This document shows, piece by piece, positions 24,006 through 24,593 of a DNA stretch of 64,000 nt. The DNA is from Candidatus Wildermuthbacteria bacterium (GTDB lineage: Bacteria; Patescibacteriota; Minisyncoccia; Minisyncoccales; CAVTZN01). The notes below the pieces were generated by a model. It was not told the DNA's origin. It did not search any database and saw nothing but the letters and a program-made list of their open reading frames with translations. Where the stretch lies: NCBI GenBank assembly GCA_963739285.1, contig CAVTZN010000004.1:31227-95226 (forward strand), written 5' to 3'. Within the stretch, counting starts at the first letter, position 1, and the number at the start of each line of letters is the position of its first letter. Position numbers and translations under genes: made by a program.

Positions 24006-24593
24006 ATGGGAGAAGAATTCCGTTTCGGCCTGAAGCAGAGAATCTTTAACTGGTATATGCGAGTGGCCAGGGAGAGAATCGGGCTTCTTCAGAAGGACTT
24101 AGGTAGATTAGTGGGAGTGAGCAAAGAAGCTATTTGTTCCTACGAGAATCTTCGGACTTTCCCGAGACCAGCGATTCAAGAAAAAATTGCTGAAGCTCTA
24201 AGGGTTCCCGCAGAGAGCATTTTTCCTCCATGGCTTAAGGAATTTAAGTTAAAAGCCGTTCCAGCGGCTATCGAGGAAAGGTCTATAAGTCTAACGGAAA
24301 CAATTTCCCTAAAACTTATTAGACCAGAAATGCTGATGATTGAGGGGCCCGAAGAGGAAGCTGAGCGGAGCGCCCTGAAAGACCAAATCAACGAGGAACT
24401 AAAAACTCTTAAACCTAGAGAAAGAAAAGTTCTTGAACTGAGATTTGGCCTGGGAGATGAGGAGCCGATGACCCTTGAGAAAATTGGCCGAGAGATGGGC
24501 GTAACGAGTGCGAGAATTCGCCAAATCGAAGTCAGAGCCCTCAAAAAACTCCGCCGCCCTGCTCGCAGTAGGAAGCTTAAAGAGTTTCTCTAA
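24006..24593 (+). CDS. Fusion protein: N-terminal XRE-type HTH + C-terminal sigma-70 region 4 (no region 2)
   Basis: AAGGAGG SD 5 nt before ATG 24006. The N-terminus ([30 protein letters not shown]...IAEALRV) is XRE-like. The C-terminus ([61 protein letters not shown]) looks like primary-sigma region 4.2. The gene is GC-rich. Confidence 0.6.
   Translation: [195 protein letters not shown]

Follow-up and report, generated by a model that had tools for sequence, protein, structure and literature searches.

What kind of protein joins a repressor-like DNA-binding domain to one end of a housekeeping sigma factor, and how does it come to stand among the housekeeping genes of a very small bacterial genome? 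The question is raised by a gene at 24006–24593 of the window, by which we mean the whole stretch of 64,000 nucleotides from a Candidatus Wildermuthbacteria bacterium that was analysed. An initial annotation, made from the sequence alone, had described its product as an N-terminal XRE/Cro-type helix-turn-helix (HTH) followed by a housekeeping-type sigma region 4 down to the terminal tail, with no region 2, and had proposed a sigma mimic or competitor, a beta-flap binder or a two-headed DNA binder. We examined the protein, its family, its locus and its evolution, and weighed the functions that such an architecture could serve.

An XRE domain joined to a primary-sigma domain 4

The gene is an intact open reading frame on the plus strand, which encodes a 195-aa fusion of an XRE domain to sigma domain 4 (sigma4), and the family alignment supports the ATG at 24006 as its start. 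The parts of the coding sequence are as follows:

24006–24593, plus strand: coding sequence of the XRE-sigma4 fusion protein (P0001), stop codon included, defined by the open reading frame, Pfam and the family alignments
24030–24248, plus strand: XRE/Cro-CI-type five-helix HTH domain, residues 9–81, from HTH_31/HTH_3, the structural model and superposition
24249–24347, plus strand: inter-domain linker, residues 82–114 (33 residues), predicted to be disordered and conserved in the clade of the window protein
24348–24590, plus strand: primary-sigma-type domain 4, residues 115–195, comprising regions 4.1 and 4.2, from Sigma70_r4 and the RpoD/SigA models
24555–24590, plus strand: H5-like far-C-terminal tail, with L191 at the position of E. 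coli L607, from alignment to the sigma70 C-terminus

In the N-terminal part, residues 17–70 matched both HTH_31 (36 bits against a cut-off of 27) and HTH_3 (32.5 bits against 23), both above the Pfam gathering cut-offs. Phage Cro/CI models from a viral structure library superposed on this domain with an rmsd of 1.6–3 Å, and it also matched repressor and regulator families of PHROG. The C-terminal part matched Sigma70_r4 over residues 132–183 (E = 1.1e-20, 73 bits against a cut-off of 24), and the best NCBIfam matches were the C-termini of RpoD/SigA models, with the alignment reaching the final residue. A profile of the family found B. subtilis SigA with E = 3e-36. The AlphaFold model, built from a 20-sequence alignment, consists of two confident domains, XRE (residues 9–81) and sigma4 (residues 115–192), both with pLDDT of about 86–96, connected by a linker of low confidence (pLDDT < 50); when this model was searched against the PDB with Foldseek, primary sigma factors were returned. 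The description of the two ends in the initial annotation is thus confirmed by profiles and structure alike.

The window gene therefore encodes a two-headed transcription regulator, composed of an XRE domain, a conserved linker and a group 1 sigma domain 4 with H5. Both domains are textbook cases and their combination is unstudied; our literature search found no paper describing an XRE-sigma4 fusion.

Search for sigma regions 2 and 3

Neither Sigma70_r1_2, Sigma70_r2 nor Sigma70_r3 of Pfam matched the fusion protein, even at E ≤ 10. BLAST against full-length RpoD aligned residues 4–195 colinearly, placing an 18-residue N-terminal stretch on region 2.3/2.4 and the ISLTET of the linker on the ISLETP motif of region 3.2. 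When sigma4 was removed, the N-terminal half gave an HHalign P of 0.037 and a probability of 1.3–1.4% against RpoD. Profile-profile comparisons evaluated with column-shuffled nulls gave p of about 0.22 for the N-terminus against RpoD region 2, about 0.09 for the linker against RpoD region 3.1–3.2, which is not significant, and about 0.055 for the whole N-terminal half against RpoD. On the HHalign result and these nulls, vestigial regions 2.3/2.4 and 3.2 were rejected as unsupported.

Among the features of sigma-70 factors, then, region 4 is present while region 2 and the region 3/3.2 linker are absent. Neither a divergent but complete sigma factor (regions 2–4) nor a doubtful region-4 match was found, and the absence of region 2 claimed at the outset was upheld. 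Since regions 1.2, 2 and 3 are absent and no vestige of them is supported, the XRE-sigma4 protein is, judged from its sequence, no sigma factor in the usual sense.

A diverse family, mainly on uncultured phages

A word-indexed search yielded about 20 proteins of the same architecture (180–220 aa), and IMG/VR contigs gave many further full-length matches; among the open reading frames extracted from IMG/VR, Sigma70_r4 was found in 19/19, HTH_3 in 13/19 and region 2 in 0/19. An exhaustive profile search, which used N-terminal halves only and whose matches were swamped by multi-XRE proteins, added at least 20 further clusters at 50% identity (190–260 aa), and all 17 full-length cluster proteins that were aligned carry sigma4. 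The family, with lengths of about 190–280 aa (alignments A1, A2 and A5), is recognised by an F.xG.K.R.YN extension in which N15 is invariant, the XRE core, an LFPxWL motif, a linker of about 35 residues and a near-consensus primary sigma4. The window protein shows this signature, including N15, R22, E47, P53 and F73-P74 (of LFPxWL) in its XRE domain. All members found are metagenomic. Source annotations divide them arbitrarily between "sigma-70 family sigma factor" and "XRE family regulator", and the former label is wrong because region 2 is absent. The full-coverage matches in INPHARED were ordinary rpoD genes, none of them the fusion.

Wherever its neighbourhood on viral and phage-like contigs was examined, the gene was placed among early or non-structural genes. 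In one phage locus it follows RecT and VRR-NUC beside methyltransferases; in a second it stands between an integrase and a methyltransferase/terminase block; in a third it follows a holin and heads a string of small genes toward VRR-NUC, ParB and terminase; and in a fourth it lies between DNA polymerase A/SNase and PDDEXK/SNF2 genes. On an integrase-carrying contig of 52 kb it heads a long string of ORFans, and portal genes also occur among the phage genes around family members. The family is thus diverse, unnamed and mainly carried by uncultured phages, where it sits in early-gene regions. The survey of the architecture that had been suggested with the initial annotation accordingly places it on many phage contigs, and in none of 300 genomes sampled from the phylum.

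A region-4 protein on mobile DNA could be the C-terminal half of a split sigma factor, with a separate small sigma2-like protein supplying core binding and −10 melting. Such an arrangement has a precedent in the region-4-like Orf7 of Tn916, which needs the RsoA-like Orf8 (bioRxiv 10.64898/2026.10.01.756105). The linker is about as long as the sigma 3.2 linker, the colinear though non-significant RpoD alignment would fit, and small RsoA-like partners escape the Pfam Sigma70_r2 model. The contexts speak against it: Sigma70_r2 was found in 0/17 viral records carrying the fusion, four of which have direct terminal repeats, and the small open reading frames abutting the gene in four phage loci are mutually unrelated, unannotated and without sigma-like matches. 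A conserved neighbour or partner gene was sought and rejected, as the contexts differ in every relative examined. The window gene itself is solitary, and rpoD is the only region-2 gene of its assembly. Although a strongly diverged partner would be missed by these searches, we consider a split sigma factor unlikely.

The locus in the window

The gene is flanked by smpB (divergent; SmpB profile, E = 7.5e-53), ssrA and infC on one side and by argS on the other, and the following elements surround the coding sequence:

23933–23960, plus strand: predicted sigma-70-type promoter from a consensus scan, TTGACA (23933–23938), 16-nt spacer, CATAAT (23955–23960)
23971–23989, no strand assigned: perfect palindrome TGGGCA-N7-TGCCCA, read from the sequence, between the predicted transcription start and the Shine-Dalgarno sequence
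23994–24000, plus strand: Shine-Dalgarno sequence AAGGAGG, read from the sequence, 5 nt ahead of the ATG
24594–24749, plus strand: GC-rich 3′ untranslated stretch with several hairpins (fold z-score −2.98)
24750–24788, plus strand: intrinsic-terminator-like hairpin and T-run (11-pair stem, then TTTATTTTTA), end of the transcription unit

The predicted promoter matches the consensus at 11 of 12 positions. The SmpB profile suggests that smpB starts at an internal Met (23903), in which case the promoter falls in a divergent spacer of about 100 nt; the predicted promoters of the window gene and smpB stand back-to-back, with overlapping −35 boxes. At the homologous position of a close relative (L145), TTGACT-17-TATAAT is found, and among relatives the gene seems to carry its promoter region along.

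The palindrome is a candidate XRE operator for autoregulation, which we offer as a hypothesis only. Its perfect copy in the window is the single one in the 456-kb assembly, and an inverted repeat with 6-bp arms is near chance expectation in 160 nt. It is not conserved upstream of the relatives, although the promoter region there looks homologous. A regulon defined by this palindrome was rejected, given the single perfect copy in the assembly and a count in the window equal to chance.

The gene and about 250 nt downstream have a GC content of 45–47% against 33–37% in the flanks, which makes up a GC-rich islet of about 0.85 kb between smpB and argS. At third codon positions the gene has a GC content (GC3) of 0.45, compared with about 0.31 for the flanking genes, and this value ranks among the highest 6% for long open reading frames of the genome. 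An intact gene with a strong Shine-Dalgarno sequence, richer in GC than its neighbours and divergent from smpB, had been read from the sequence at first sight, and all of this was borne out. The structured RNA said to follow it stood less well: the fold z-score speaks weakly for a structure, but the stretch matched no Rfam family and is not conserved in the relatives L004, L086, L089, L144 and L145, and a downstream RNA as a conserved part of a module was rejected.

Foreign origin and purifying selection

No homologue of the N-terminal half was found in the 300 genomes sampled from the phylum (0.5–2 Mb, CPR-like). Among 185,579 species genomes, scanned with peptide patterns that reach close relatives only, one distant full-length relative was found, with 31% identity, in a MAG of Omnitrophota. 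The closest relatives (52–65% identity, the same protein length) are scattered over unrelated loci, with the same GC contrast in L144 and L145, the two nearest of them. In the maximum-likelihood tree the window protein belongs to a nine-member clade with 90/90 support. All four members whose neighbourhoods are of cellular type belong to it, and the clades among which it is nested have members on viral contigs. The sigma4 of the fusion is only 46% identical to that of the RpoD of the same genome; RpoD tails across the class of the host end in ...KIRQHxxLKKLKGY, whereas the tail of the fusion is of the canonical type. Given the excess of GC and GC3, the lack of a homologue in the sampled phylum genomes, the unrelated loci of the relatives, the nesting among viral clades and the RpoD-unlike sigma4 and tail, we conclude from composition, distribution and phylogeny that the window copy, a single-gene islet, was acquired horizontally; it has a predicted promoter, a Shine-Dalgarno sequence and a terminator of its own. 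The regulator was most likely derived from phages.

Comparison with the relatives gave dN/dS values of 0.12–0.26 for the window gene, with about 0.2–0.3 in each of the XRE domain, the linker and sigma4, which indicates that the gene is under purifying selection. Within the clade the linker keeps 73–82% amino-acid identity (dN/dS 0.17–0.33) and the motif EE.sISL.EA..L.L..P..LM..GPEEE. As it is as conserved there as the folded domains, this predicted-disordered segment probably binds something. In the immediate lineage sigma4 is the fastest-evolving part, with 51–54% identity against 67–76% for the XRE domain and linker, which could be a sign of relaxed constraint and not of a new function.

Decay of a phage or mobile gene into a functionless remnant within the CPR genome would account for a solitary gene amid housekeeping genes, for this fast change of sigma4 and for the replacement of two −35-reading residues described below. 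It would not account for an intact frame equal in length to relatives at 52–65% identity, for the low dN/dS values, or for the strong predicted promoter with its Shine-Dalgarno sequence and terminator. We regard decay as highly unlikely.

Possible functions of the sigma4 head

In the recognition helix of the window protein, TSAR stands in place of the TRER of the RpoD consensus: S168 corresponds to R584 of E. coli and A169 to E585, so that two −35-contacting residues are replaced. Across the family, whose sigma4 consensus is essentially that of RpoD, position 584 is variable, while E585, R586, R588 and Q589 are retained in 31–37 of 37 members. R588 is replaced in 4/9 members of the clade of the window protein against 1/45 elsewhere (Fisher p = 0.002). 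L607 is retained in 32/37 members and H5 is conserved in the per-residue table, being kept in 8/9 members of the window's clade; in one distal viral clade H5 has degenerated, and docking on the flap may therefore not extend to the whole family.

H5 is absent from alternative sigma factors. A review on T4 describes region 4 of sigma70 as bound to the beta-flap by way of H1, H2 and the far-C-terminal H5, the last of which normally sits inside the flap hook and makes no contact with DNA (PMC2988021). The assembly of the window is 59% complete and lacks rpoB, and the flap was therefore read in relatives of the same class: there the tip helix is canonical, EERLLRAIFGEKA, and a canonical sigma4 could thus dock on it.

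We tentatively favour a reading which, on our estimate, falls a little short of an even chance: the protein, which is no sigma factor, would be a phage-derived regulator in which operator binding is linked with docking on the beta-flap and/or on a −35-like site. The XRE head would bind a specific operator, in the window possibly the palindrome at 23971–23989, which would bring about autoregulation. The sigma4 head would dock on the beta-flap tip of RNA polymerase via H1, H2 and H5, competing with the domain 4 of the resident sigma, and might also touch a −35-like sequence. Either RNA polymerase would be tethered or retargeted at operator-bearing promoters, or −35-dependent initiation would be blocked; in either case a single polypeptide would act in analogy to phage "sigma appropriation". 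For the window copy we give docking more weight than classical reading of TTGACA, because the base-reading residues are partly replaced and H5 is kept.

Part of these observations would suit a plain two-HTH repressor as well, in which the XRE domain binds an operator, sigma4 binds a TTGnnn/−35-like hexamer, and promoters are occluded without contact to RNA polymerase. The retention of E585, R586, R588 and Q589 in most members may be explained equally well by a purely DNA-binding sigma4. The XRE domain is canonical, the predicted promoter of the gene itself holds a perfect TTGACA with the palindrome just downstream, and position 584, together with R588 in the window's clade, varies as if co-evolving with its own sites. 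Conservation of H5 in the window's half of the tree, for a helix that makes no DNA contact, is however not what a DNA-only role would predict, and the match of more than 120 bits to the sigma4 of SigA exceeds what DNA contact needs. Such a repressor is possible, but we hold it to be rather doubtful.

Alternatively, a free sigma4 might act as a decoy that titrates binders of the resident domain 4 (anti-sigma factors, activators, phage or defence factors), with the XRE domain serving autoregulation only. A near-consensus primary-sigma domain 4 with H5, phage provenance and an early-gene position would all fit. No candidate target was found, and a decoy could do without conservation of its linker. 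For the anti-phage defence systems MZA, Rmr and CapH/CapP, no full-length match and no system neighbours were found; the PADLOC/NCBIfam matches are at domain level only (residues 596–667 of 683 of MzaA, and the HTH of RmrA and CapH), and membership in a defence system was rejected. We consider a decoy very unlikely.

The favoured reading, operator binding coupled to docking and/or a −35-like site, has to reckon with the domain 4 of the resident sigma, which is tethered to the holoenzyme and which a sigma4 acting in trans must out-compete. The reading can be extended further. Family members might serve phages widely as a "spare domain 4", in which sigma4 displaces the resident domain 4 and the XRE domain swaps the −35 element for a private operator, while the window's clade would be a domesticated host regulator; we put this forward as a speculation whose truth we doubt more than we expect. 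If it is true, spare-domain-4 proteins are a widespread single-polypeptide phage solution to sigma appropriation. Should sigma4 dock on the beta-flap, the family would give phages and mobile genes a means of reprogramming promoter choice that is both new and simple, and would be nature's counterpart to the artificial fusions of "activator bypass". Through the window, the family gains a clade that lives in cellular genomes; these have ultra-small gene sets and hardly any sigma factors, and a single acquired regulator could matter there. As a small, soluble protein of two domains, it is an easy object to test. Overall, the interpretation given in the initial annotation is partly supported: its sigma mimic or competitor, beta-flap binder and two-headed DNA binder are all plausible.

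Comparison with known systems

The closest likeness of the C-terminal head is to domain 4 of RpoD/SigA (regions 4.1/4.2 and H5), which residues 115–195 match to the last residue and in fold. The fusion differs in not being joined to regions 1.2–3, and the window copy carries S and A at the positions of R584 and E585. The N-terminal head is comparable to phage Cro/CI (XRE) regulators, as it scores above the HTH_31/HTH_3 cut-offs and superposes on models of the Cro/CI/DicA type. It departs from them in the F.xG.K.R.YN extension and LFPxWL, and carries a sigma domain 4 where a dimerisation or sensor domain would be expected.

SigO-RsoA of B. subtilis and Sig7-Sig8 of Tn916 resemble the fusion in that a region-4 protein without region 2 is found on mobile DNA. 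Both need an adjacent small sigma2-like partner, whereas no conserved partner was found for the fusion in the contexts examined. To our knowledge, region-4 proteins of the SigO/Sig7 type have not been reported with an XRE domain. T4 gp55/gp33 is also a precedent for a split sigma.

Late activators of the RinA/ArpU type are small regulators that switch on phage operons and are remotely akin to sigma factors (PMC3152322). None of this family was among the Pfam, NCBIfam and PHROG matches of the fusion, which differs in its housekeeping-type domain 4 and in its position in early regions, not directly before terS.

In principle of working, the fusion would resemble sigma appropriation. T4 AsiA and MotA, and the beta-flap binders T4 gp33, gp39 of the Thermus phage P23-45 and p7 of Xp10, are early or middle phage proteins that seize the sigma4/beta-flap/−35 interface and change promoter choice (PMC2988021, PMC3950348, PMC3985653 and PMC7892883). 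Their working principle is the same as that proposed here; they have no relation in sequence or fold to the fusion. Compared with them, the XRE-sigma4 protein would, as we propose, supply the flap-docking and the DNA-reading modules in one polypeptide.

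Predicted divergent promoters of the fusion gene and smpB

The gene for the XRE-sigma4 fusion protein and the divergent smpB are predicted to be transcribed from back-to-back promoters within window 23911-23960, in which the following elements were recognized from the sequence.

23933-23938, plus strand: predicted -35 hexamer of the fusion-gene promoter, TTGACA
23939-23934, minus strand: promoter-like site for smpB, TTGTCA followed after 17 nt by TAAACT ending at 23911, with a TG

Since the two -35 hexamers overlap by 5 bp, one -35-binding protein could act on both the fusion gene and smpB. 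The SmpB profile match begins only at residue 23 of the long smpB ORF, and thus translation of smpB probably starts at an internal Met (23903), in which case the smpB mRNA would be nearly leaderless.

Predicted RNA structures downstream of the fusion gene

Two segments with predicted hairpins lie between the fusion gene and argS.

24594-24790: GC-rich 3' UTR with several hairpins, upstream of the terminator (fold z=-2.98)
24804-24878: long hairpin whose 12-nt arms, ACCCCCACACCA / TGGTGTGGGGGT, match perfectly

The 3' UTR matched no Rfam family, and no conservation of it was seen downstream of the relatives' genes; the SD-like string CCAGGAGGAAT is found again inside it (24617-24633). A smaller hairpin, GTCGCT/AGCGAC, is nested inside the long one, the end of which is separated from the argS start codon by 15 nt.

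Flanks of the gene in relatives

In L145, one of the two loci carrying the closest relatives of the window copy, direct repeats of a ~120-nt intergenic block lie on either side of the P0003 gene (281-400 and 1089-1222). The blocks comprise three colinear segments, 73-84% identical and ~810-820 nt apart, and each holds a terminator-like GGGCGGTTTTTT together with a promoter-like TATAAT region. These repeats may have been left behind when a cassette inserted, or they may reflect duplication of a regulatory region. A homologous inverted repeat, YCCAGARTTCAT...GTGGATTCTGGRR, is common to the relatives P0002 and P0005/P0006 immediately upstream of the gene (L144 403-454; L004 158-191; L086). It occupies the position of the predicted sigma-70-type promoter in the window and L145, and its right arm contains the SD in L144.

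Within the window, the PurF-like gene (20294-21655; GC 43% overall, GC3 0.38) is also GC-rich compared with its neighbours, and therefore further foreign islets may exist there.

Related architectures and sigma factors of the host lineage

In several members of the family the protein continues for 50-170 residues beyond sigma4 (L009-L011, L025, L036, L047, L048; P0221, P0247), and some of these C-terminal extensions bear Cys-rich, zinc-ribbon-like motifs (CxxC...CxxC). The N-terminal profile search also returned giant proteins of up to 5640 aa with 5-19 tandem XRE-HTH repeats (P0121-P0158).

Among the IMG/VR viral contigs L013-L018 (match ~6001-6423), L013 and L014 encode a protein of 158 aa, and the corresponding protein of L015-L018 has 158-160 aa, depending on the choice of start codon. 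The L013 protein, the one tested among the six, possesses only sigma regions 3 and 4 (Sigma70_r3 E=6e-30) and lacks region 2. Phage DNA thus encodes another type of sigma protein truncated at the N-terminus, besides the XRE-sigma4 fusions.

The source assembly G000 (456 kb, 59%-complete) contains just two genes that encode a sigma4, rpoD and the XRE-sigma4 fusion. rpoB was not found in it; a tblastn search using the conserved flap/GDKMAGRHGNKG region gave no match. RpoD proteins of the host's CPR-like class end in a lineage-specific tail, ...EKIRQHxxLKKLKGY* (class relatives L154-L168; L002 754-1689), in place of the canonical H5 RHPSRSxxLxxFL, while the beta-flap tip helix of the class remains canonical, EERLLRAIFGEKA.
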